NCBI GenBank assembly: GCA_022561875.1
Contig: JADFQJ010000003.1
Location: forward strand, 56,397 to 120,396
Source of the DNA: Bacteroidota bacterium
Lineage (GTDB): Bacteria; Bacteroidota; Bacteroidia; Bacteroidales; VadinHA17
Reading direction: 5' to 3'
DNA length: 64,000 nucleotides
In this document: piece after piece, positions 4,889 to 57,821 of the stretch
Layout: every line of letters starts with the position of its first letter
Numbering within the stretch: position 1 is the first letter of the stretch
Notes under the pieces: model-generated
The model's input: the letters and a program-made list of their open reading frames with translations, nothing else
Databases searched by the model: none
Told to the model about the DNA's origin: nothing
Translations under genes and position numbers: made by a program

Positions 4889-5001
4889 CTCTTTGCTTTT
4901 TTCGTTCAGAAAACAAATTACAAAGTTATTACATAAGTTTCAAATAGATGTTTATTTATATGAATAAAATTGTTTTTGTAATTACAAATATAGTAATAAA
5001 T

Positions 5002-5057
5002 CAGTTGGCAATAGGCAATAGGCAGTTGGCAACAAAGAGCAAAGAGCGTAGAGTACA
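5002..5057. repeat. heptad word array (8 x 7 nt)
   Basis: CAGTTGG CAATAGG CAATAGG CAGTTGG CAACAAA GAGCAAA GAGCGTA GAGTACA. An 8-nt array ACTAATCA x2 follows at about 5100-5126. Confidence 0.85.
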
Positions 5058-5286
5058 GGGCTATGGGTTCCATTATGGCATAGCTTACCTGTAACATAAA
5101 ACTAATCAACTAATCAACCAATTAACGATGAAGAAGTTGGTACTCAGCAGTCTTCAGTCTGTAAAAAACAGAGATCATTGATCTAAGAAAAATCCTATGA
5201 TAAAGTCGGACTCCGACTGTGATTTAGCAAGTGGGTAGCAGTTCGGATTCCGGCTTAGTGGTTTAATACCCTGGTGAAGGTTTTAG

Positions 5287-6151: not shown

Positions 6152-6253
6152 AATTCAGTTTTAGGACGATATTAAGTAGTAAAAAGTTACAGACAAACTA
6201 TTAATGTTTTTTACATTTACCTTTCAATGTAACTATTCAGTGCCAAATGAAAG

Positions 6254-6416
6254 AAATGAGTAAATGAGTAAATGATAAAATGTTTAAAGTGACTAAAATT
6301 GAAGAATCGTGAGTCGTGAATCGTGAAGAGAAAAGAATTCAAGATCCAATGTTAAGTTTTTCTTAACTTCTTCTTTCTTCCCAACTTTAGGCACTCATAA
6401 CTTTAGGCACTTTAAG
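6254..6416. repeat. mosaic repeat patch: AAATGAGT octads, ATCGTGA heptads, AACTTTAGGCAC 16-mers
   Basis: Octads at 6254-6282, heptads ATCGTGA GTCGTGA ATCGTGA at 6306-6326, and AACTTTAGGCACTCAT AACTTTAGGCACTTTA at 6384-6415. The 25-mer at 6294-6318 recurs inverted at 21236-21260. Confidence 0.85.
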
Positions 6417-6491
6417 TACTGTATATGAAGCTTTTATAAGGAAAAGATAAAAATAATTATAAAAATACTTGCAATCGTGTACTAAATAACT

Positions 6492-10610: not shown

Positions 10611-11828
10611 ATGATCTTTTCAATTTCCTGGAGAAATATCTGGAGAAATAAAGTCCGGAGCCTGGTGATCATCACTGCCGTGGCTTTGGGAATTTGTGCC
10701 GGAGTGTTTTCAACTGCCTTTATGAAGGGGATGATGGATCAGCGGATCCGGCAGGCTATTTCAACCGAGATCTCACATATACAAATCCACCGGCAAGGCT
10801 ACAGGCAAGAAAGCAGTTTGCAGCTTTACATGAACGAATCGCCAGCTGTGGTGGAACAAATAAAAAAAATAAATCATGTCAAAGGAGCGAGTCAGAGGAT
10901 CATTATTCAATCGATGGTCTCTTCTGCTGAAACCTCATCAGGTGTAAAGATCGCAGGGATCTATCCCGAAAACGAACAAAATGTCACTAACCTGAGTACG
11001 AAAATTGTTGAAGGAAAATATTTCGAGGGTGTACCCAGAAACCCGGTTGTTATTGGCAAGAAGCTGGCTGAAAAGCTCAATGTAAAGTTGCATTCGAAAA
11101 TTGTCATCACACTGCAGGATATGGATAAAAACATAACGGCAGGTGCATTCCGGATAGCAGGGCTTTTTGAAACACCAAATTCAACCTACGACAAAATGAG
11201 TGTATTCGTCAGGTATAATGATCTCTCACGGTTATTGAATCTGCCGGAAGGTGCAAGCCACGAAATTGCAATACTTGTTGACGATAACGAGATGGTATCC
11301 TCTGTTCAGGACGAGGTGAAAGCTTTAGTTGCTGATTATGAAGTCCTGAACTGGAAGGAAATTAGTCCTGAAATGGGTTACATAACTGAAGTTATGGACA
11401 TGTATATGTATATTTTTATTATAATCATCTTACTTGCTTTGTTGTTTGGTATCATTAATACAATGCTAATGGTAATACTCGAAAGAGTAAAAGAGATTGG
11501 AATGCTTCTGGCTGTGGGGATGAATAAATTAAGAGTGTTTACAATGATCGTGGTTGAAACCGTGCAGTTATCCCTGGTGGGGGGTGTTGCAGGGATGGTC
11601 GTCGGTAGTTTGATATCGAAATATTTTGAAACTCATGCAATAAACCTTTCCAGATGGGCAAAAGGATATTCCCAGCTCGGGTATGACACTATGGTTTATT
11701 GCAATCTTGAATCCGAAATGATTATAAATATTACCATCCTTGTGATTCTTACAGGAATCATAGCTGCCATTTATCCGGCATATAAAGCATTGAAATATGA
11801 TCCGGCAGAGGCATTACGAATGGAATAG
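10611..11828 (+). CDS. ABC transporter permease, FtsX/LolE type (copy 3, divergent)
   Basis: ISWRNIWRNKVRS..., ERVKEIGMLLAVGM. Start set at ATG 10611 (the ORF-track start 10575 is a TTG). Confidence 0.85.
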   Translation: MIFSISWRNIWRNKVRSLVIITAVALGICAGVFSTAFMKGMMDQRIRQAISTEISHIQIHRQGYRQESSLQLYMNESPAVVEQIKKINHVKGASQRIIIQSMVSSAETSSGVKIAGIYPENEQNVTNLSTKIVEGKYFEGVPRNPVVIGKKLAEKLNVKLHSKIVITLQDMDKNITAGAFRIAGLFETPNSTYDKMSVFVRYNDLSRLLNLPEGASHEIAILVDDNEMVSSVQDEVKALVADYEVLNWKEISPEMGYITEVMDMYMYIFIIIILLALLFGIINTMLMVILERVKEIGMLLAVGMNKLRVFTMIVVETVQLSLVGGVAGMVVGSLISKYFETHAINLSRWAKGYSQLGYDTMVYCNLESEMIINITILVILTGIIAAIYPAYKALKYDPAEALRME

Positions 11829-11843
11829 AATAATAAAAAAAAT

Positions 11844-11983
11844 CAGTCGGCAGTCAACAGTCGGCAATTTGCAATCGGTAGTCAACAACTGGTAGTAATA
11901 AAAAGAAAACAATTATAAAATAATAAAAAACGGGAAAAATCACATTAAAATTACACAGTCTTCTGTTTGCCGACTGCTGACTG
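11844..11983. repeat. heptad array (CAGTCGG type) with an inverted partner about 100 nt away
   Basis: 11844-11899 reads CAGTCGG CAGTCAA CAGTCGG CAATTTG CAATCGG TAGTCAA CAACTGG TAGTAAT. TTGCCGACTGCTGACTG at 11967-11983 is the reverse complement of CAGTCAACAGTCGGCAA with one mismatch. Confidence 0.85.
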
Positions 11984-12083
11984 AAGATTGCAGACTTAAA
12001 AATACAAAGTATAATAAGATTAGCCATTTTAGGCATTACAAACTTACGACACTGAATATTTATAAAATTTTAAACACAACATT

Positions 12084-12767
12084 ATGAGCATTATAGAGAT
12101 TAAAAACCTGACAAAAATCTATGACGGTTCTGGCTTTGAGGTAAAAGCCGTTAACGGAATTAACCTGAGCTTTGAGAAGGGAGAATTTGCTGCTATAGTT
12201 GGTCCTTCAGGCTCTGGAAAAACCACACTGCTTAACATGCTGGGAGGATTAGACCATCCAACCTCAGGCGAAGTGATTGTTGATGGTCAGAATATCTGGA
12301 AACTTAAGTCCAGGAAATTAACTGATTTCAGGTTGTACAACATTGGCTTCGTATTTCAGGCATATAACCTTATACCTGTGCTGACAGCAAAAGAAAATGT
12401 AGAGTTTATTATGCACCTGCAGGGCAGAAGCAAGAAAGAACGCGACAGCCGTACCAGGGAACTGATGCAGGCTGTCGGACTTGAAGAACGAATGAACAGC
12501 CGTCCGTCTAAGTTGTCCGGGGGACAACAGCAAAGAGTTGCTGTTGCACGCGCACTGGCATCTAAACCAAAATTTATCCTGGCTGATGAACCAACAGCTA
12601 ACCTGGATTCAAAGTCAACGGAAACTTTACTTGATATAATGGAACACCTTAATAAAGAAGAGGATATCACTTTTATATTTTCCACTCACGATGCCAGGGT
12701 AGTGAAGAAAGCCAGAAGAGTTATTACCATCGAAGACGGGAAAGTTAAGTCTGATGAGGTACGGTAA
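12084..12767 (+). CDS. ABC transporter ATP-binding protein (LolD/MacB-type)
   Basis: Walker A GPSGSGKTT, signature LSGGQQQRVAVARAL, Walker B ILADEPT. Confidence 0.95.
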   Translation: MSIIEIKNLTKIYDGSGFEVKAVNGINLSFEKGEFAAIVGPSGSGKTTLLNMLGGLDHPTSGEVIVDGQNIWKLKSRKLTDFRLYNIGFVFQAYNLIPVLTAKENVEFIMHLQGRSKKERDSRTRELMQAVGLEERMNSRPSKLSGGQQQRVAVARALASKPKFILADEPTANLDSKSTETLLDIMEHLNKEEDITFIFSTHDARVVKKARRVITIEDGKVKSDEVR

Positions 12768-12795
12768 TGTCATGTTAACATAATAATATTGTAAA

Positions 12796-12970
12796 GTTGG
12801 CAAAATGCAAAAGGCAGTTGGCAAATTGGAAAGGATAGTTGGTAAAATGCAAAAGGCAGTTGGCAAATTGGAAGGATAGTTGGCAAGAATGCAAAGAGCA
12901 GTTGGCAAATTGGAGGCAAATTGCGGAAAACAGTTGGCAAAATTGCAATTGGTAAAAGGTAAAATAAATT
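12796..12970. repeat. 42/41-bp tandem repeat (about 3 units plus a degenerate tail), each unit built from six NNNNGCA-type heptads
   Basis: Unit 1 at 12796-12837 is GTTGGCAAAATGCAAAAGGCAGTTGGCAAATTGGAAAGGATA. Unit 2 is 12838-12878. Unit 3 starts at 12879 and decays towards 12970. Confidence 0.9.
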
Positions 12971-12992
12971 TCAAATTGCAAAAACAGGAAAT

Positions 12993-13202
12993 ATGGCTGG
13001 AAGTTTTAGGGATTTAACAGTTTTTAAAAAAGCATTTGCTTTGTCAATGGATGTTTTTAATATTATAAATAAATTCCCTTCCAAAGAAAAGTTTGAATTA
13101 ACAGACCAAATCAGAAGATCCTCCCGTGCTGTTTGTCGGGCAATTGGAGAAGGGTATAGAAAACGGCAATATCCAAAACATTTTTCAAGTAAAATGCTTT
13201 AA
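12993..13202 (+). pseudogene. four-helix-bundle protein (23S rRNA intervening-sequence protein family), C-terminally truncated
   Basis: FRDLTVFKKAFALSMDVFNIINKFPSKEKFELTDQIRRSSRAVCRAIGEGYRKRQYPKHF matches the N-terminal half of this family. It has only 69 codons, and its stop lies 2 nt before the next ATG. Confidence 0.6.
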
Positions 13203-14582: not shown

Positions 14583-16220
14583 ATGATTTACGATTATATT
14601 GTAGTCGGGTCCGGTTTTGGGGGAAGTGTTGCATCATTGAGACTGGCTGAAAAAGGATATTCGGTATTAACCATTGAGAAAGGTAAGAGATACCGGAGTG
14701 AAGACTTTCCTGAGACAAACTGGAATTTACCAAAACATCTCTGGTATCCACGGATAGGGATGTTCGGCATTCTGAAACTATCCTTTTTTTCGGAAGCAAG
14801 CATACTCAGTGGTGTGGGAGTTGGAGGTGGTAGTCTTGTTTATGCCAATACCCTGGTTAAGCCCCCTGATGAATTTTTTCAAAACCCTTCATGGTCAGAA
14901 TTTAAAGATTGGAAAAAAATTCTTGAGCCATATTATGAAACGGCAGGTTTTATGCTGGGAAGAAAAAAATATGATAAACTGAACTATGAAGATGAGATTT
15001 TAAAAGAAGTAGCAAAGGATTTTAACAGGGAAGACACTTTTGAAGCTGTTCATGTTGGAGTATATTTTGGTGATAAGGAAAATGAAATTGATCCCTATTT
15101 TAACGGCTTGGGTCCGAAAAGAAAAGGGTGTACCGAATGTGCGGGCTGTATGGTTGGATGCAGGGATAATGCAAAAAATTCTCTTGATAAAAACTATCTC
15201 TATTTTGCTGAGAAAATGGGTGTTTTTATTCAGGCTGAAACGAAGGTTGAAAAAATTATTTGTAAGGATAATTTATATCATGTTTTCACTTATTCAGGCG
15301 CCTCTTTATTTAAGAAAAAACCAACAGTTTACAGATCAAAAGGACTAGTTATTTCAGGTGGAACACTTGGTACCTTAGACTTGTTGTTAAAACAGAAGTA
15401 CAAGTATAAAACCATGCCGGCTATTTCTGAAAAACTCGGATATGAATTACGTACAAATTCACAGACATTATGTGCTGTTTCAGGGGCAAAAGAAAAACTA
15501 AATAATGGAATTGCAATTACATCGGTTTTTAATCCCGATTCTCATACCCATGTTGAAATAGTCAAATATCCCGATAAATCGAATGCAATGAAATGGTTTT
15601 TTACCCTTTCAGCAGAAGGGAATACAAACCCCCTGATAAGAGTTTTCAAATTATTTTATAAAACACTTACACACCCTCTGCAATTCATTAAAACTGTTTT
15701 TAATTTCAACTGGTCTGCAAACCTTATAGTATTTCTGGTTATGCAAACAATCGATAATTCTATGCAGATGATATGGACCGGAAATGTATTTGGCGGGAGA
15801 ATTAAAATAAGAAACAGGGGAGAGAAAAAGGTTCCTGCATATATTGCCCAGGGACAGAAAGTGATGGAAAATTACGCAAAAAAAGTGCATGGAATTCCAC
15901 AGAATATAATATTAGAGATATTTTTAAACCGACCTACCACAGCACATATTATTGGAGGATGTCCTATGTCAGACTCAGCCGAATCGGGGGTGGTTAACGA
16001 AAAATTTGAAGTTCATGGCTATGACAACATGTATATTATTGATGGTTCGGTAATTCAGGGAAACCTTGGTATGAATCCCGCGTATACAATCACCGCGATA
16101 GCTGAGTATGCCATGGATCAAATTCCCGGAAAGCCGGGGAACAGGACAATTTCAGTACTGGAACAAATGAAAATAATCAGTCGGCAGTCACGGGAAAAAA
16201 GGCAAAAGCTTGCCACGTGA
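14583..16220 (+). CDS. GMC family FAD-dependent oxidoreductase (cholesterol/long-chain-alcohol oxidase-like)
   Basis: N-terminal FAD fold DYIVVGSGFGGSVASLRLAEKGYSVLTIEKG and a C-terminal GMC motif region (HIIGGCPM..., NMYIIDGSVIQGNLGMNP). The last ~15 codons read into a repeat patch. Confidence 0.8.
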   Translation: MIYDYIVVGSGFGGSVASLRLAEKGYSVLTIEKGKRYRSEDFPETNWNLPKHLWYPRIGMFGILKLSFFSEASILSGVGVGGGSLVYANTLVKPPDEFFQNPSWSEFKDWKKILEPYYETAGFMLGRKKYDKLNYEDEILKEVAKDFNREDTFEAVHVGVYFGDKENEIDPYFNGLGPKRKGCTECAGCMVGCRDNAKNSLDKNYLYFAEKMGVFIQAETKVEKIICKDNLYHVFTYSGASLFKKKPTVYRSKGLVISGGTLGTLDLLLKQKYKYKTMPAISEKLGYELRTNSQTLCAVSGAKEKLNNGIAITSVFNPDSHTHVEIVKYPDKSNAMKWFFTLSAEGNTNPLIRVFKLFYKTLTHPLQFIKTVFNFNWSANLIVFLVMQTIDNSMQMIWTGNVFGGRIKIRNRGEKKVPAYIAQGQKVMENYAKKVHGIPQNIILEIFLNRPTTAHIIGGCPMSDSAESGVVNEKFEVHGYDNMYIIDGSVIQGNLGMNPAYTITAIAEYAMDQIPGKPGNRTISVLEQMKIISRQSREKRQKLAT

Positions 16221-16279
16221 AATGCGACGAAGGAGCATATTTCACTGTGGGCAGTCGGCAGTCCACAGTCGGCAAAAAT
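16176..16279. repeat. CAGTCGG-type heptad arrays flanking a 7-bp hairpin, overlapping the 3' end of the GMC oxidoreductase ORF
   Basis: CAGTCGGCAGTCAC at 16178-16191, hairpin GTGAAAT...ATTTCAC at 16217-16245, and CAGTCGG CAGTCCA CAGTCGG CAAAAAT at 16252-16279. Confidence 0.8.
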
Positions 16280-16346
16280 GAAAATAACAATAAATATTTT
16301 ATCATTCCAAACTTATGACACTGAATAGTTACTAATCAAAAGTTCA

Positions 16347-17723
16347 ATGGAAGCTTCAGAAATACAATCATTAATAAAAAATCAAAGGAAATTTTTCCTG
16401 TCTCAGGAAACAAAAAACATTGATTTCAGGATCAATAATCTGAAGAAATTACTGAAAACTGTACAAGCTTATGAAAACCGTATATGTAAAGCATTATACC
16501 TTGATATGCATAAGCCGGAATTCGAAGCTTATACGGAAGTGGGTCTTGTTATTCAGGAATTAAAATTACATATCCGGAAACTTAAAAAATGGGCTAAACC
16601 GAAAAGAGTCAGAACACCGTTGGTCCATTTTTTATCCAAAAGCTATTATTATCCTGAACCATATGGGAGAGTATTGATCTTTTCTCCGTGGAACTATCCG
16701 TTCCAGTTATTGATGATCCCTCTTATAGGCGCGATATCAGCAGGGAATTGTGCTTTGTTAAAAGCTTCACGAAGAGCGCCGCATACAGCCGATGTGATAA
16801 ACGAAATTACAAGCTCAAATTTTGATCCCGGCTATATAGCTTTCATAAAAGGAGGCAATGAAATTAACCGTGTGCTTCTTGAGTCGAAATTCGATTATAT
16901 CTTTTTTACGGGAAGTGTCAGGGTAGGCAAAAGGATTATGGAAGCCGCCTCGAAAAACCTAACTCCTGTTTCTCTTGAGCTGGGAGGGAAAAATCCCTGT
17001 ATAGTATGTAAAGATGCTGATATTGATATGGCTGCGAAAAGAATTACCTGGAGTAAATTCTATAATGCGGGACAAACATGTGTTGCCCCCGATTATTTAT
17101 TGGTGCAAAAGGATATTAAAGAGAAATTGCTTAATAAAATTAAATTTTTTATTGCTGAATTCTATGGGAAAAAGCCCTCGGAAAGCCCGGATTATGCAAG
17201 AATAATTAACGCAGCTAATGTTGAAAGACTGGAGAGATTAATGAGATCAGGAAATATTATCAGCGGGGGGAACACTAATATTTCGGAAAATTATGTCGCA
17301 CCAACACTTATCGACAATGTGAACCCCGGAGATCTGATTATGCAGGAAGAAATTTTCGGACCCATTTTGCCTGTTATTGAATATAACAATATTGATGAAA
17401 TTTTCCCGCTGATAAACAATAATCCCAAACCGCTATCATTATATATCTTCTCGAAAAGCCGGAAACTCCAAAAATATATTCTTAGCAGAACCTCTTCAGG
17501 TAACGGTGCTATAAACGATGCTGTTATCCAGTTCAGTAATCCATATTTACCCTATGGAGGAGTTGGTGAAAGCGGCATGGGAAGGTATCATGGGAAAAGT
17601 ACATTTGACACTTTTTCAAACTATAGGGCAATCATGAAAAAATCAAACCTTCTTGATATTTCCCTCAGGTATCCTCCCTATACAAAAAGGAAAACTAAAA
17701 TTCTTAAAAAATTCCTTGGTTAA
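16347..17723 (+). CDS. NAD(P)-dependent aldehyde dehydrogenase (class 3 / fatty aldehyde type)
   Basis: ELGGKNP catalytic Glu motif, YNAGQTCVAPDY catalytic Cys motif, EEIFGPILPV. Confidence 0.9.
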   Translation: MEASEIQSLIKNQRKFFLSQETKNIDFRINNLKKLLKTVQAYENRICKALYLDMHKPEFEAYTEVGLVIQELKLHIRKLKKWAKPKRVRTPLVHFLSKSYYYPEPYGRVLIFSPWNYPFQLLMIPLIGAISAGNCALLKASRRAPHTADVINEITSSNFDPGYIAFIKGGNEINRVLLESKFDYIFFTGSVRVGKRIMEAASKNLTPVSLELGGKNPCIVCKDADIDMAAKRITWSKFYNAGQTCVAPDYLLVQKDIKEKLLNKIKFFIAEFYGKKPSESPDYARIINAANVERLERLMRSGNIISGGNTNISENYVAPTLIDNVNPGDLIMQEEIFGPILPVIEYNNIDEIFPLINNNPKPLSLYIFSKSRKLQKYILSRTSSGNGAINDAVIQFSNPYLPYGGVGESGMGRYHGKSTFDTFSNYRAIMKKSNLLDISLRYPPYTKRKTKILKKFLG

Positions 17724-21016: not shown

Positions 21017-21180
21017 TGATACTGACGATAAAAATTTCTCACAAAAATAGTAAATTCAGATTTTATAAAAGATGCATAGAGAAAAAGTATTAAATTCGCT
21101 GACAGAATTTGCGATTTTATTTTGCGTAACTAATTATTACTTAAAGTGAAATAAAGTTAAGTAATGCGAGTAAGGAGGAA

Positions 21181-21314
21181 GAATGAGTTCAAGGTTCAAA
21201 GTTCAAGGGTGAAACAGGGTTCTGGGAGCTGGTTTCACGACTCACGATTCTTCAATTTTAGACATTTTAGGCATTTCTTAATTTTAGGCACTTCAAACTT
21301 TAGGCATTTCTTCT
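21181..21314. repeat. mosaic repeat patch (GTTCAAG words, inverted CGTGAGTCGTG module, TTTTAGGCA 16/17-mers)
   Basis: GAGTTCAAGGTTCAAAGTTCAAGG. CACGACTCACGATTCTTCAATTTTA at 21236-21260. ATTTTAGGCATTTCTTA ATTTTAGGCACTTCAA ACTTTAGGCATTTC. Confidence 0.85.
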
Positions 21315-21327
21315 ATAATTACTAAAA

Positions 21328-24300
21328 ATGAAGAACTTCAAAATATATAACAGAACCCTGGGATGGATAACTTTTCTGATAGCCCTGGTTGTTTACCTTA
21401 TGACTATTGAACCAACCACCAGCTTATGGGATTGTGGTGAATTCATTGCTTCGGCTTTTAAACTTGAAGTTGGTCATCCGCCGGGAGCCCCACTTCATAT
21501 GATCATGGCGCGCGTGGCATCTTTGTTTGCCGGCAGTAATGTAGAGAATGCCGCAAAGATGATAAATGCACTGTCGGCCTTCGCAAGCGCCTTTACGATC
21601 ATGTTCCTTTTCTGGACGATAACACATTTGGCTGTTAAAATATTTAACAGGGATAAGGAAATAACCAATGGCAATATGATTGCTATCCTTGCAAGCGGTC
21701 TGGTAGGGGCGCTTGCCTATACTTTTTCCGATACATTCTGGTTCTCAGCTGTTGAAGGAGAAGTATATGGAACTTCTTCACTTTTTACTGCTGTTGTATT
21801 CTGGGCAATTCTGAAATGGGAGAATGTTGCTGATGAGAAATATGCTGACAGATGGCTTATACTCATTGCTTATTTAATGGGATTGTCTATAGGTGTGCAC
21901 CTGCTCAACCTGCTTGCTATTCCGGCAATTGTCCTGGTATATTATTTCAGGAAACACAGTTTCAGTGTAAAAGGATTCACTGTTGTCCTGATGGTTTCTG
22001 TTGTGTTGATAGCTATTATTATGTGGGGTATCATCCCTGGAATTTGTAAAACCTCTTCACAGTTTGAGCTTTTATTTGTAAATACTTTCGGCTTATTTTA
22101 TAATTCAGGGGTTCTGGTACATTTTATATTTTTGGTTTTTTCACTTATTCTTGCCATTTACTATACCCATTTCAGGAAAAAATCAGAAATTGAAACTGCC
22201 GTTTTTTCCATCATTGCAATAACCCTGTTAGGTGTTCCGTTTCTTGGCAGTACGTTTTTCGTAAATCTGGTGTTATGGCTTATTGTATCAGGGGTTGTAT
22301 ATTACCTGGCACATACTAATAAAGTAATACTGAATACCATTTTAACAAGTGCTGCCGTCATTTTGATTGGATACTCCTCTTTTGCAATGATCGTTATCAG
22401 GTCGCAGGCTGACCCTCCGATAGATGAAAACAATCCGGAAAATGTCTTTTCATTGCTTTACTACCTCAACAGGGAACAGTATGGTTCCAGTCCCTTGTTG
22501 TATGGTCAGTATTATAATGCTCCAACTGAAGCAATAGAGAATGGTAAACCCACTTACAGGCCGAGGAACGGTAAATATGAAATAATAAAATACTCTCCGG
22601 AAGTTATTTATGATGATCGTTTTATGACTTTTTTCCCACGAATGTGGAGTCCTCAATCTGACCATAAAGTCCAGTACAGGAAATGGGGGAAGATAAAAGG
22701 GACGCCTGTGAAAATCACCGATGGATCAGGGGAAACGAAAACTATCTATAAACCAACCTTTGTTGAAAATATCAGGTTTTTTATCAATTACCAGGTCGGA
22801 CATATGTACTTGCGTTATTTTATGTGGAATTTCTCCGGACGGCAAAATGATATTCAGGGACATGGAGGTCCGTTAAAAGGGAACTGGCTTACCGGGATCG
22901 ATTTCCTGGATGAGATACGCCTGGGTCCACAGGATGATCTGCCTGAAAGTATGGATACCCCATCCAGGAATGAATATTTGATGTTACCCTTACTGCTTGG
23001 TTTGATGGGATTTTTATACCAGCTTCAGCGGGATAAGAAAAACTCTTTGGTCACATCGCTTCTGTTCCTGATGACAGGTTTAGCTATCGTCATTTATCTC
23101 AACCAATATCCAAATCAGCCACGGGAAAGGGATTATGCATATGCCGGTTCTTTCTATGTTTTTACCATTTGGATTGGGCTGGGTGTTCTGGCTTTTTATG
23201 ATATCCTGAAAAAATATATTCCCGGCAGCGCCGGAGCCATAATAACCGGTTTGGCATGGTTAATACTGGTTCCGGGAATATTGGCACGTGAAAACTGGGA
23301 TGACCACGACCGTTCAGGAAAATATGTTGCAAGAGATATTGCATATAACTATCTGAATTCATGTGCCCCAAATGCCATTCTGTTTACAAATGGCGATAAT
23401 GACACTTTTCCCCTGTGGTATGCGCAGGAAGTTGAAGGGATCCGCACCGATGTTCGTGTCGTGAACATGATGTTGTACAATACGGATTGGTATATCGATC
23501 AGATGAAAAGGAAAGCATATGAGTCTGAAGCACTTCCTCTCTCATTGCCACTGAAAAAATATCAGGATGGTACAAATAACCAGGTATTTATTATTGAACG
23601 GATCGATGAGTTTACAGAAATCGGTAAGATCATTGATTTTGTGAGGAATGATAGCAGAGGAACAAAAATAAGAACCAGGGATAACGAGTGGATCGATTAT
23701 ATTCCGACAAAAAATTTCCGTATTCCTGTTAATAAAGAGAGAGTTCTTTCGAATGGCACTGTTGCTCAGGAAGATGCGGATAAAATTGTACCGCATATTG
23801 ATATAACTATTAACAAAAACTATATTTTGAAAAGCCAGTTGATGCTGATTGATTTTCTTGCTCAGAACGACTGGGATCGCCCTGTGTATTTTGTAACCGG
23901 AGGAACCGAAGATGCCATTGGGTTAGAGGACTATTTTCAGCTTGAAGGATTTGCATACCGCCTGGTTCCAATAAAAACAGAAAAAAGGGGCATAGTTGAT
24001 TATGGTCGTATAAATCAGGATGTTATGTATGATAACCTGATGAATAAATTCAAGTGGGGCAGAATAAACGAACCGGATGTTTACCTGGATTACTATTCAC
24101 GCAGGACATTATTAGTTATGAAGGTGAGGAATAATTTTGTGCGTCTTGCAAAATCCTTAATTTCAGAAGGGAAAAAGGACTCTGCAGTTGTAGTTCTTGA
24201 TCGTTGTGTTGAGCTGATACCAAACGAAAAATTACCCATTGGCATATTTACCACCGGATTGGTTGAAGGTTATTATTTGGCGGGAGCAAAAGAGAAAGCT

Positions 24301-28082: not shown

Positions 28083-28141
28083 TAAAGAAAAAAGTAACTA
28101 ATCAAACTTAAGACACGGAATAGTCATAGAAAAAAAAATAA

Positions 28142-29437
28142 ATGGATTTTATTGAAGAGTTGAAATGGAGGGGCATGATTCATGATATGATGCCCGGAAC
28201 GGATGAGCAGTTAAAAAAGGAAATGACAACTGCCTATATTGGATTCGATCCTTCCTCTGATTCATTGCATATAGGTAATCTTGTTGGAATTATGATCTTG
28301 CAGCAATTCCAGCGGGCAGGACATAAACCTCTTGTGCTTATTGGTGGCGCTACAGGTATGATAGGTGATCCTTCAGGGAAGTCGCAGGAGAGAAACCTGC
28401 TTGATGAAAAGGAATTGCGTCATAATCAGGAGGCTATAAGAAAGCAACTTGAAAAATTTTTCGATTTTGATACGGAAAAGCCCAACGCTGCCGAAGTGGT
28501 GAATAACTACGATTGGATGAAAACATTCAGCTTTCTGGAATTTATTCGTGATATAGGGAAACATCTTACTGTTAATTATTTGATAGCAAAAGAATCGGTA
28601 AAAAAACGTCTCGATCCGGAAACCGGGTCTGGAATGTCTTTCACAGAGTTTTCATACCAGTTGGTTCAGGGATATGATTTCCTGCATCTTTACAAGGAAA
28701 AGAGCTGCAAACTGCAGATGGGAGGATCAGACCAGTGGGGAAATATTGTTACAGGTACTGAACTGATCCGGCGAAAGGAGCAAGGCGAAGCTTTTGCACT
28801 GACAAGTCCGCTTATTACCAAATCCGACGGAGGAAAATTTGGAAAAACAGAAGCTGGAAATGTATGGCTCGATCCCCGGAAAACTTCACCATATAAATTT
28901 TACCAGTTCTGGCTGAATGTGTCTGATGAAGATGCAAAAAAATATATCAGGATATTTACATTATTGCCACAGGAAGAGATATTTGCTTTAATTAAAGAAC
29001 ACAAAGAAGCACCGCATGAACGGTTGCTTCAAAAAACCCTTGCAAGAGTGGTGACAATAATGGTTCATTCCGAAGATGATTATAAAACTGCAGTTGAGGC
29101 ATCCGGCATATTATTTGGTAAAACTACTGCTGAACAATTACAAAAACTGGACGAAAGTACTTTCCTTTCGGTATTTGAAGGGGTACCGGCTTTTGAAATC
29201 AGCAGCAGAGAAATAAGTTCCGGAATTGGTCTTACAAAACTTTTAGCGGAAAAAACTCAGGTTTTTCAATCCAAGGGAGAAATGAGAAGATTTGTAAAAG
29301 GAGGCGGATTGAGCCTGAATAAGAAAAAAATAACAGATCCTGAAGTTAATATCTCTCTTTCAGACCTGATCAATAATAAATATTTACTGGTGCAGAAAGG
29401 CAGGAAGAATTATTTCCTGCTTAAAGTAATTTTCTGA
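28142..29437 (+). CDS. tyrS: tyrosine--tRNA ligase
   Basis: HIGN motif ([10 protein letters not shown]), KFGKT (KMSKS-equivalent) and a C-terminal S4 domain. 431 aa. Confidence 0.95.
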
Positions 29438-33285: not shown

Positions 33286-33540
33286 GTAATTATTCAGTGC
33301 CTAAATAAAAAAGTGCCTTAAGTTTGAAATAGCTAAAATGCCTAAAGTTATAAATAAATAGCGCCTAAAATTTAAAATGACTAAATGACTAAATGCTAAA
33401 ATGTCCAGAATGTTACGAGTTACGAGTTACGAGGTTCGGGTATTTGAACCTTTAACTTGTCTTCCTCCCTACTATTTACTACTTACTTCCTACTTCTTTC
33501 TTCACTCACCTCTCACCGCTTCTTCCTCTCCTTCCTCACC
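33286..33540. repeat. mosaic repeat patch (TGCCTAAA words, AAATGACT octads, GTTACGA heptads, TTTGAACCTTTAACT module, CT-rich tail)
   Basis: Octads at 33375-33403. GTTACGA x3 plus GGTTCGG at 33412-33439. The pyrimidine-rich stretch runs up to the efp stop codon. Confidence 0.85.
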
Positions 33541-35061: not shown

Positions 35062-35179
35062 CTAACGTTTTATTACTAAACTATTCAAAAAGCATACCTT
35101 AATGCTTTTAGCAAATATAGATAACAGTTCATTACATTCATAACTACTCAATAAAAGAAATGATTAAATGAGTGAATGA

Positions 35180-35268
35180 CTTCAGAATTCATGTTTCATA
35201 TTTCGGTTACAACTTATGCATATCCTTAAAGCATAAAAAGTATAAGGATTTTGCGAACGAAGTGAAGC
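35180..35268 (+). repeat. interspersed ~90-120 bp repeat, copy 1
   Basis: ...CGGTTACAACTTATGCATATCCTTAAAGCATAAAAAGTATAAGGATTTTGCGAACGAAGTGAAGC, near-identical to the reverse complement of 57700-57821. Confidence 0.85.
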
Positions 35269-39655: not shown

Positions 39656-39715
39656 TTATGTTATCTTTAAAAACTCAGTAAATTATATAATTCATTAATT
39701 AGAAAAGAGCTTAAA

Positions 39716-41318: not shown

Positions 41319-41372
41319 GGCTTATTTTATAAAACTGTGCAAAATTACAAAAAAAAATATAACTCCGTAACT

Positions 41373-41410
41373 AAAGTGAAGAAATGAAGAAATGAGTAAA
41401 TGAGTAAATA
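41373..41410. repeat. 8-nt periodic array (AAATGAGT class)
   Basis: AAAGTGAA GAAATGAA GAAATGAG TAAATGAG TAAATAG. Confidence 0.8.
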
Positions 41411-44404: not shown

Positions 44405-44512
44405 TTATTGAGAAAAAGTTTAAAGTGAGCTAAAGTTAAGAGTGCCTAAAGTTGAGAAGAAGGTTTAACTTTAGGCATTTTAGGCACTTTTAACTTTAGG
44501 CACTTTTTTATC
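44405..44512. repeat. TTTAGGCAC word patch containing a perfect 11-bp hairpin
   Basis: TGCCTAAAGTT at 44443-44453 pairs with AACTTTAGGCA at 44467-44477. TTTAGGCA words continue to about 44507. Confidence 0.85.
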
Positions 44513-44560
44513 TAACCATATATTAAGCCACAAACACTGAGTAGTTAATGATTAAGATTC

Positions 44561-45199
44561 ATGGAGGTAAATAGTAAAGAATACGACAAGAAACGATTTA
44601 TTCACAGCCTGGTATTTCCGGCTTTTTTTGTTTTTGTTGTGGTTATGGCGAAAGTTATTGAATCGGGGTTTGACCTTGATCTTACTCACTTGGGAATATA
44701 TCCCTTAAAAGCCAAAGGACTGAAAGGTATTTTATTATCACCAATGGTGCATGCCGATTACCGGCATCTGGCAGACAATTGTATTCCATTGTTTTTACTG
44801 GGAGTTGCACTGTTTTATTTTTATCAAACATTAGGCTATAAAATATTTTTCCTGAACTACCTTATGGTTGGTATATGGGTATGGGCCGGAGGTCGGGGTG
44901 CGTATCATATAGGTGCCAGCGGACTTGTATACGGACTGGCATCTTTTCTGTTTTTCAGCGGGGTAATAAGAAACGATATGCGCTTGCTCGCTATTTCACT
45001 ATTAGTGGTATTTTTGTATGGTAGCATGATATGGGGTATTTTTCCTATATTTCCGCAAGTATCGTGGGAATCGCATATGCTTGGTAGTATTTCAGGGTTT
45101 GTGCTGGCAATATATTATCGTAAGCAAGGTCCTCAGCTGAAAGTATATGAATGGGAATTGGAAGAGGAGGATGAGATGATTGAAGATAATGAGGAATAA
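44561..45199 (+). CDS. rhomboid family intramembrane serine protease
   Basis: Six TM helices with GASGLVYG (catalytic Ser) and a downstream His in SWESHMLGSISG. Confidence 0.8.
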   Translation: MEVNSKEYDKKRFIHSLVFPAFFVFVVVMAKVIESGFDLDLTHLGIYPLKAKGLKGILLSPMVHADYRHLADNCIPLFLLGVALFYFYQTLGYKIFFLNYLMVGIWVWAGGRGAYHIGASGLVYGLASFLFFSGVIRNDMRLLAISLLVVFLYGSMIWGIFPIFPQVSWESHMLGSISGFVLAIYYRKQGPQLKVYEWELEEEDEMIEDNEE

Positions 45200-45202
45200 A
45201 AA

Positions 45203-45229
45203 AAGCCGGTAACGAAACCGGCTTCTTTT
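45203..45229. terminator. bidirectional rho-independent terminator (rhomboid gene / tRNA-Asn)
   Basis: AAGCCGGT-AACGAA-ACCGGCTT, a perfect 8-bp stem, flanked by an A-run upstream and CTTTT downstream. This gives T-tracts on both strands. Confidence 0.7.
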
Positions 45230-47200: not shown

Positions 47201-47295
47201 GACGAAGGCTAAAAGTATAAATTATTACCAGAATATACCAGAATGAGATTTATTCTTGTGTAACTATTTAGCGCCTTATGTTTGAAATGCCTAAT

Positions 47296-57699: not shown

Positions 57700-57821
57700 G
57701 TGCGAAGAGATGAACTTTACGAAAAGCCGGGAGAGATTGCTTCACTTCGTTCGCAAAATCCGTAAACTTTTTATGCTTTAGGGGTATGCATAAGTTGTAA
57801 CCGGAATATGAACTCTGAAAG
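57700..57821 (-). repeat. interspersed ~90-120 bp repeat, copy 2 (inverted)
   Basis: The reverse complement reads ...TTCCGGTTACAACTTATGCATACCCCTAAAGCATAAAAAGTTTACGGATTTTGCGAACGAAGTGAAGCAATCTCTCCCGGCTTTTCGTAAAGTTCATC. Confidence 0.85.

Follow-up and report, generated by a model that had tools for sequence, protein, structure and literature searches.

The conserved box upstream of genes in a Bacteroidota genome segment is most probably one end of IS66/ISBst12-type MITEs

Short repeats that combine conserved ends with a modular interior are abundant between the genes of several bacteria; examples are the Correia/NEMIS elements of Neisseria and the BOX elements of pneumococcus. They are transcribed together with the adjacent genes, and promoters or RNA processing sites arise from some of the copies. 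Correia elements duplicate the dinucleotide TA, and to our knowledge BOX elements have neither a transposase nor a target duplication. Sequences, hosts and transposase families of both groups differ from those of the elements described below. Among insertion sequences, the IS66 family is characterised in ISfinder by inverted repeats beginning with 5'-GTAA and by an 8-bp duplication.

The closest described analogue in the phylum Bacteroidota is the BrickBuilt MITE of Porphyromonas gingivalis, a strictly intergenic element with terminal repeats around short direct-repeat bricks, which is separated from the nearest genes by tens to hundreds of nt and has been proposed to influence them (PMC4596501). 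Its terminal repeats are of the GAGACCTTTGCA type and were matched to ISPg elements, and it contains one type of brick with a length of 23 nt. Promoter activity was measured for BrickBuilt, segments of which drive lacZ in both directions (PMC4596501). Another system of relevance is ISDge4 of Deinococcus geothermalis, a member of the ISBst12 group of the IS66 family with the terminal inverted repeats (TIRs) GTAACTGCTCAGCA and GTGACTACTCAGCA and an 8-bp direct repeat (PMC12898284). In a limited literature search, no IS66/ISBst12-derived MITEs with brick-like interiors were encountered.

The DNA analysed here, called the window throughout, is a stretch of 64 kb with a G+C content of 36.9% in which patches of short repeats fill most of the intergenic spacers. 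Its sequence is present nearly whole in marine-sediment metagenome runs and partly in cold-seep runs; its aldehyde dehydrogenase shows only 55-57% identity to genome representatives. In an initial annotation, a conserved box had been noticed five times close to gene starts. The window indeed harbors exactly five matches to CACTGARTANTTA, at 6230-6242 (-), 12050-12062 (+), 16319-16331 (+), 33287-33299 (-) and 44535-44547 (+), with a chance expectation of 0.04 and no shuffle out of 100 giving five or more. All five copies are intergenic and point at the next gene, the start of which is 13 to 87 nt away. The distance from the box end to the start codon is 21 nt for an ABC ATPase (copy A), 15 nt for an aldehyde dehydrogenase (copy B), 13 nt for a rhomboid protease (copy C) and 30 nt for a SpoIIE-type phosphatase (copy D); in the case of an ECF-type sigma factor (copy E) it is 78 nt to a TTG and 87 nt to an ATG. 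Pfam searches agreed with the gene names proposed earlier for all five neighbours. Also present are the longer stretch common to copies A and B, AAACTTAYGACACTGAATA, and the weak relative that had been placed near 39675 (39672-39686). More degenerate copies were found at 47260-47275 (-), reading GGCGCTAAATAGTTAC, at 28114-28127 (+) and at the right end of an element at 21126-21322.

With a probability of about 90%, the box corresponds to the terminal 13-16 nt on one side of non-autonomous transposons (MITEs) that belong to the IS66/ISBst12 type. Terminal inverted repeats, a target-site duplication (TSD) of fixed length, small size without a transposase in many dispersed copies, and presence or absence at orthologous sites were all found. 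The proposal that the box lies at the edge of mobile-looking mosaic elements was correct, the box being the terminus itself. Intact elements were recovered from related Bacteroidota MAGs and from metagenome contigs; they have a length of 100-505 bp, contain no transposase and show stops in all frames. They begin with the left end GTAACTAATCAGT and finish with the right end ACTGAATAGTTAC, which are complementary at 12 of their 13 positions and thus represent inverted repeats. The conserved box, CACTGAATAGTTA(C), is the right end, and its reverse complement reads GTAACTATTCAGT. Owing to the single mismatch between the TIRs, the left ends had been missed by the original box pattern.

Target-site duplications were assessed in 51 box copies having a left end that matched GTAACTAATCAGT with at most two mismatches 100-505 nt upstream. 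The 8-bp flanks were identical in 21 of these copies and agreed at seven of eight positions in 12 more (33/51 at 7/8 or better), while only 0.8% of mismatched, shuffled flank pairings reached this level, which identifies the flanks as 8-bp target-site duplications. Conservation fades gradually within the ~35 nt that precede the box and ends at …TTAC, a boundary that was partly forced by a search pattern with fixed last positions.

The interior of the elements is made of short tandem and inverted bricks, namely TTTAGGCAC, CAGTCGGCAG, CTCGTAAC and AATGAGTAA. The patches of TTTAGGCAC and CAGTCGGCAG are therefore the interior of these MITEs, and the brick repeats imply that an element folds as a long hairpin; for one intact copy, a single long hairpin running end to end with paired ends was predicted (z = -3.5). 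Two main architectures have only the ends in common. The A-type comprises CAGTCGGCAG arms and a conserved …GACTTAAAAATGCAAAGTATAATGAGATTAGCCATTTTAGGCATTCCAAACTTAAGACACTGAATAGTTAC, in some copies with a fragment of a four-helix-bundle gene. The B-type comprises AAAGTGAACTAAAGTT / AACTTTAGGCACTTT arms, in some copies with AATGAGTAA and CTCGTAAC bricks. In the window, elements of this family and related features were located as follows.

12048..12063 (+): box copy A, GACACTGAATATTTAT, tip degenerate; right TIR of an A-type MITE, aligning over its full length with intact A-type MITEs having TIRs and TSDs
11835..12063 (+): MITE A, ~229 bp, between the FtsX permease gene and the ABC ATPase gene; degenerate left end AAAAAAAATCAGTCGGCAG, inverted arms CAGTCGGCAG / CTGCCGACTG, conserved right part GACTTAAAAATACAAAGTATAATAAGATTAGCCATTTTAGGCATTACAAACTTACGACACTGAATATTTAT, box
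12038..12045 (-): TAAGTTTG (CAAACTTA on the plus strand); perfect match to the Bacteroidota -7 consensus, antisense to the box and directed into the MITE; same motif at 16307-16314
16169..16332 (+): MITE B, 164 bp; left TIR GAAAATAATCAGT (2 mismatches), overlapping the last ~17 codons and the stop of a GMC oxidoreductase ORF; right TIR and box GACACTGAATAGTTAC at 16317-16332
44534..44548 (+): box copy C, ACACTGAGTAGTTAA, degenerate; right-end remnant of an ancient A-type MITE, separated from the rhomboid ATG by 13 nt; remnant of a B-type (TTTAGGCAC-type) MITE just upstream at ~44409-44512
33286..33301 (-): box copy D, GGCACTGAATAATTAC, forming the right end of a decayed brick-type MITE; the latter occupies the spacer that separates efp from the SpoIIE phosphatase gene (33286-~33540)
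6229..6428 (-): MITE E, B-type, ~200 bp; box GGCACTGAATAGTTAC at 6229-6244, left-end remnant CAGTACTTAAAGTG, lacking the tip, at 6408-6421
47260..47275 (-): degenerate box copy F, terminating a TTTAGGCRC patch, ~250 nt upstream of a deoxynucleoside kinase gene and co-oriented with it
21126..21322 (+): MITE G, B-type; left TIR GTAACTAATTATT followed by ACTTAAAGTG, degenerate right end …TTCTTCTATAATTAC 5 nt before the ATG at 21328
28086..28135 (+): region of a 34-bp mini-MITE (28094-28127) consisting of both ends only, GTAACTAATCAAACTTAAGACACGGAATAGTCAT, with a perfect 8-bp direct repeat AGAAAAAA on both sides; 14 nt before the ATG at 28142
41359..41378 (+): left-end remnant GTAACTAAAGTG adjoining the flank ATAACTCC; no box, orientation opposite to that of the flanking genes; in the MAG C2.bin.40 (locus L235), this insertion site is occupied by an intact MITE with the TSD ATAACTCC

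When compared with intact elements, copies A and B of the window align with the A-type, and copies C, D and E as well as the element at 21126-21322 with the B-type. The window copies are older and partly decayed, with left ends and duplications mostly eroded. In four of the five box copies the left tip and the duplication are unrecognisable, and homology to intact copies elsewhere suggests that these, too, are MITE ends. Left-end-like sequences, GTAATAAATCAGT and ATAACTACTCAAT, occur at 4993-5088 (+) and 35140 (+), followed by GGCAAT and AATGAGT bricks. They are oriented opposite to the flanking genes, have no recognisable box end and are possibly antisense-oriented decayed copies. In the wider sample, an ungapped search detected no left end in about half of the box copies. 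A comparison of the persistence of right and left ends is biased by the way in which the loci were retrieved, and left ends with indels were missed. Such a left end, AACTATTTGAGTG, is present in loci of lake Bacteroidales MAGs (L215:2526-2644; L126, L158, L165, L231) and explains why ungapped searches fail there; the box unit of these loci is ~99 nt long and can be tandem, with two boxes 99 nt apart.

Ends of the GTAAYTNNTCAG type together with 8-bp duplications also flank elements that encode IS66-family transposases. An element of 1658 bp from Methyloprofundus (locus L167, 3068-4726) has the ends GTAATTATTCAGACCC…GGGTCTGAATATTTAC (GTAATTATTCAGAC…), a perfect 8-bp duplication and a single ORF of 521 aa. 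This ORF reads inward from the box-type end and encodes an IS66-family transposase (PF03050, 3.8e-43; NF033517, 5e-72). More distant single-ORF IS66 elements with GTAACCGTTCAGA… ends and 8/8 duplications were found at the loci L307, L332 and L334. In the autonomous IS66-type relatives, the transposase gene starts ~90-120 nt inside the box-type end and is likewise directed inward. Insertion sequences of the ISBst12 type such as ISDge4 thus resemble the MITEs described here in TIRs of the form GTAACTnnTCAG… and in the 8-bp target duplication, and all four loci named above encode a single IS66-family DDE transposase between such ends. The start with 5'-GTAA and the 8-bp duplication of the MITEs fit the hallmark of the family. 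Differences concern the interior, which in the Bacteroidota elements of 100-505 bp lacks a transposase gene and is unrelated to the insertion sequence. Two-ended copies of MITE size with duplications also occur in other phyla (L099, L100, L113, L129, L177, L204), which indicates that this type of end is widespread.

The autonomous partner was searched for as well. By tblastn, the L167 transposase had no match in the window or in ~200 Bacteroidota loci, the hits of a protein-based scan were confined to Gammaproteobacteria and a few further lineages outside the Bacteroidota, and the A-type end was not matched in the plasmid collection. As a rule, IS copies interrupt the assembly of MAGs. With short-read MAGs, the failure to find an autonomous element with the exact Bacteroidota ends is unsurprising. 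From the similarity of the ends to those of elements in other phyla, we infer that a transposase of this family would mobilise the Bacteroidota MITEs.

The distribution of the box was surveyed with queries of two lengths. A 16-nt query across genomes gave mostly chance matches, and ~16 matches in Bacteroidota MAGs had the upstream context known from the window. A 20-nt query, TTWRGRCACTGAATANTTAC, returned at least 107 stretches; among the matches listed, almost all belong to few lineages. These are C2.bin.40 with at least 35 loci, the cold-seep MAGs CSMAG_406, _1436, _487, _490, _1309, _2868 and _2487, the lake Bacteroidales MAGs Loc080925 bin-499, KTt_bin-0938 and LJ-5-9m_bin-0023, and furthermore SMBSF07, SMBSF39, B93T1L10, a Rikenellaceae MAG, several Flavobacteriaceae and a Ferruginibacter MAG. 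Metagenome contigs contributed 86 further stretches with the box. In summary, dozens of copies per genome occupy unrelated loci, and more than 100 distinct loci are known from a handful of genomes and metagenomes. Box matches in unrelated phyla at L085, L109, L114, L130, L151, L179, L184 and L195 have the common context …GCAATGRCACTGAATATTTACYGCNACNGGCA…, which gives the appearance of a conserved coding or RNA sequence without any relation to the MITEs.

Of the genomes found, the MAG “Bacteroidetes bacterium C2.bin.40” is closest to the window; it is collinear with parts of it at 80-94% amino-acid identity and ~86-90% DNA identity in genes. The element content of the two differs at three orthologous spacers, and one insertion site is common to both, where C2.bin.40 has an intact copy and the window a decayed one. 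In the spacer from the rhomboid gene to tRNA-Asn, C2.bin.40 (L235:6202-7652) carries an insertion of ~1.45 kb that is absent from the window (45184-45223); it holds an ORF and an A-type MITE.

Several other repeats and genes of the window were noted. MITE B encloses a hairpin repeat of 38 nt, CCACGTGAAATGCGACGAAGGAGCATATTTCACTGTGG, at 16213-16250, and a related unit is present in L281. Two bins spanning 16025-16426 reached ~52-54x contig depth in run X1 versus ~8x in the flanks, and many contigs branch there; the depth jump and the branching together indicate that the hairpin repeat is a separate high-copy repeat in that metagenome. The ORF of the GMC oxidoreductase (14583-16220, +) has a Pfam match that stops at residue 507 of 545, and the position of its last codons inside the left end of MITE B indicates that the insertion rewrote the C-terminus. 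A shortened ORF of 68 aa at 12993-13196 (+) belongs to the family of 23S rRNA-intervening-sequence/four-helix-bundle proteins (PF05635, 4.3e-16, profile positions 1-61 of 106) and follows a GTTGGCAAA-type brick array at 12790-12990. Fragments of four-helix-bundle genes are also located inside A-type MITEs of L240, L241 and L243. Finally, a repeat family of ~90 nt without a box has inverted copies at 35162-35268 and 57723-57810. Its core is GGATTTTGCGAACGAAGTGAAGC plus the reverse complement, adjoining …CATAAGTTGTAACCG…, and it also occurs in L235 of C2.bin.40.

Mosaic, intergenic and hairpin-forming patches could also be expected of REP/BIME-like extragenic palindromes or of a structured RNA motif instead of a cut-and-paste transposon. 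The hallmarks of DDE transposons, however, include target duplications as precise as the 8-bp ones seen here and inverted repeats at both ends, and a search with Rfam 15 at the gathering threshold matched only three tRNAs in the window. We therefore regard this explanation as very improbable.

The initial annotation had further described the box as always oriented with the downstream gene and at a consistent distance from it. Orientation statistics were calculated for a larger sample with a crude ORF-based gene call (at least 110 aa, ATG starts) after removal of near-identical flanks. Of the 129 family copies left, 125 are intergenic. In 76 cases the box end is directed towards a gene start, in 26 towards a gene end. 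Among the elements flanked by tandem genes, 36 are in sense and 15 in antisense orientation (p = 0.005); divergent genes flank 24 copies and convergent genes 7. Of the 84 co-oriented copies, 36 are located within 50 nt of the start codon. Where the box faces the 3' end of a gene, it is often only 0-35 nt away from the stop, and some of these copies supply the stop codon itself, as TAA from …TTA or as TAG from a following CTA. The rule thus applies to five of five copies in the window, while across the family it is reduced to a real but partial bias of ~70-75%. This tendency is the same in intact and decayed copies. A hint from genomes only that older copies are more biased than young ones disappeared when metagenome copies were added (Fisher p = 1.0). 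A scan of 32 intact copies for hairpins followed by T-runs gave one sense and three antisense terminator-like structures; with almost no such hairpins in intact elements, terminator polarity does not explain the orientation bias.

The bias bears on the original proposal that the box end, instead of or besides being a transposon end, acts as an outward promoter, 5'-UTR or regulatory module. Such a function is not needed for the conservation of the box, which transposition explains. 

The excess of box ends facing gene starts speaks for such a module, and so do the copies within 50 nt of a start codon, which leave no room for a separate promoter; BrickBuilt provides a precedent for activity in both directions (PMC4596501). 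On the other hand, ~25% of the copies abut gene 3' ends. The box itself does not match TAnnTTTG, as had been noted before, and no sense-strand motif of this kind lies in or after it; within ±200 nt of the box, no enrichment of TAnnTTTG at a fixed offset was found on the sense strand in 104 copies. The upstream spacers of genes A, B and D contain no sense-strand TAnnTTTG at all, which would favor a promoter within the element, but these genes follow co-oriented genes and read-through is plausible. The only TAnnTTTG of the rhomboid and sigma genes precedes the entire element, at a distance of 169 and 379 nt, respectively, from the ATG, and that of the rhomboid gene is conserved in C2.bin.40 although the intervening element is wholly different. 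In L281, a native TATTTTTG lies between box and ATG, and it is kept in the window, whose orthologous site has no box. Moreover, at the only orthologous site that could be compared, the box has drifted faster than the adjacent leader: CACTGAGTAGTTA of the window and CAATGAATAGCTA of C2.bin.40 differ at 3 of 13 positions, as against one difference in the next 16 nt up to the ATG.

Further searches for a promoter of the adjacent gene gave little. Sparse, unstranded contigs of one doubtful “metatranscriptomic WGA” run had no ends near boxes, and a generic sigma-70 scan of 11800-12100 yielded nothing relevant on the plus strand. The sequence TTGCCG-N16-TATAAT inside A-type copies resembles an E. 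coli promoter, yet it does not fit the Bacteroidota -7 consensus and was rejected. Taken together, a promoter or regulatory module at the box end appears unlikely, since TIRs and TSDs account for the box. What stands of the proposal is the orientation bias and a passive delivery of 5'-UTR sequence, as an insertion 5-40 nt from a start codon becomes part of a 5' UTR or operon spacer. A sigma-54 promoter with TGGCAC as -24 element was also considered because copy E, TTGGCACTGAATAGTTAC, resembles the -24 half of TGGCAC-N5-TTGC. In no copy is the GG followed by GC at a spacing of 10 nt, TT stands where the -12 GC would be expected, about half of the copies show GACAC rather than GGCAC, and GGCAC is simply the last TTTAGGCAC brick. 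Spacing and GACAC variants thus refute this reading, the probability of which is close to nil.

A different picture emerged on the opposite strand. A positional scan of 104 copies revealed a perfect antisense TAnnTTTG (CAAACTTA read as TAAGTTTG) at one fixed position beside the box in 41 copies and no comparable peak elsewhere. The motif is probably a relic of the transposase promoter, as it reads into the element in the same way as the transposase gene does in autonomous relatives. It is conceivable, if rather doubtful, that the arrangement TTG-N16-TAAGTTTG overlapping the box is this ancestral promoter and still fires into the MITE, giving rise to antisense or non-coding RNA or driving a downstream gene when inverted. 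The fixed position of the motif and the inward start of the transposase gene in IS66-type elements are in line with such activity, and an inverted copy in L201 places the motif ~75 nt upstream of the next gene. Against it, the motif is confined to one subfamily (…CAAACTTAAG…) and missing from TTTAGG-type ends, the TTG lies partly in flanking DNA and is weakly enriched, and the spacer of 16 nt is shorter than the 17-23 nt of Bacteroidota promoters.

According to the transposon model, the box would be kept because an IS66-family transposase must bind and cut there, as the properties of the family suggest, and it would be alike across copies also because these are recent descendants of one another. 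Its vicinity to genes would follow from insertion into AT-rich intergenic DNA. Elements often land 5-40 nt from a start codon and would probably be co-transcribed as part of 5' UTRs or operon spacers. The transposon model alone leaves the orientation bias unexplained; the excess of box ends facing gene starts would most likely reflect selection on the orientation that is tolerated in transcribed DNA. Given this bias and the insertions beside start codons, there may be a modest chance of an added regulatory role. Specifically, the box end might have been co-opted, with elements kept where the box abuts a start codon and affects transcription or SD-independent translation initiation, or the inward relic promoter and the hairpin might act together as an insulator; we consider either form of co-option improbable.

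The finding explains most of the mosaic repeat patches in the genome of the window and its relatives as nested, decaying IS66-type MITEs rather than regulatory architecture. The combination of GTAACTAATCAGT…ACTGAATAGTTAC with an 8-bp duplication is diagnostic for the family. For genome annotation, this knowledge makes spurious promoter and sRNA calls avoidable; contigs of MAGs tend to break at these repeats, and some ORF ends are supplied by transposon sequence, as in the GMC oxidoreductase gene. The partial orientation bias and the insertions 5-40 nt from starts offer a reasonable test case for the way in which Bacteroidota put up with insertions in their leaders or exploit them, which would be an incremental question. 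If co-option were true, a family of mobile elements would be rewiring expression across cold-seep Bacteroidota genomes.
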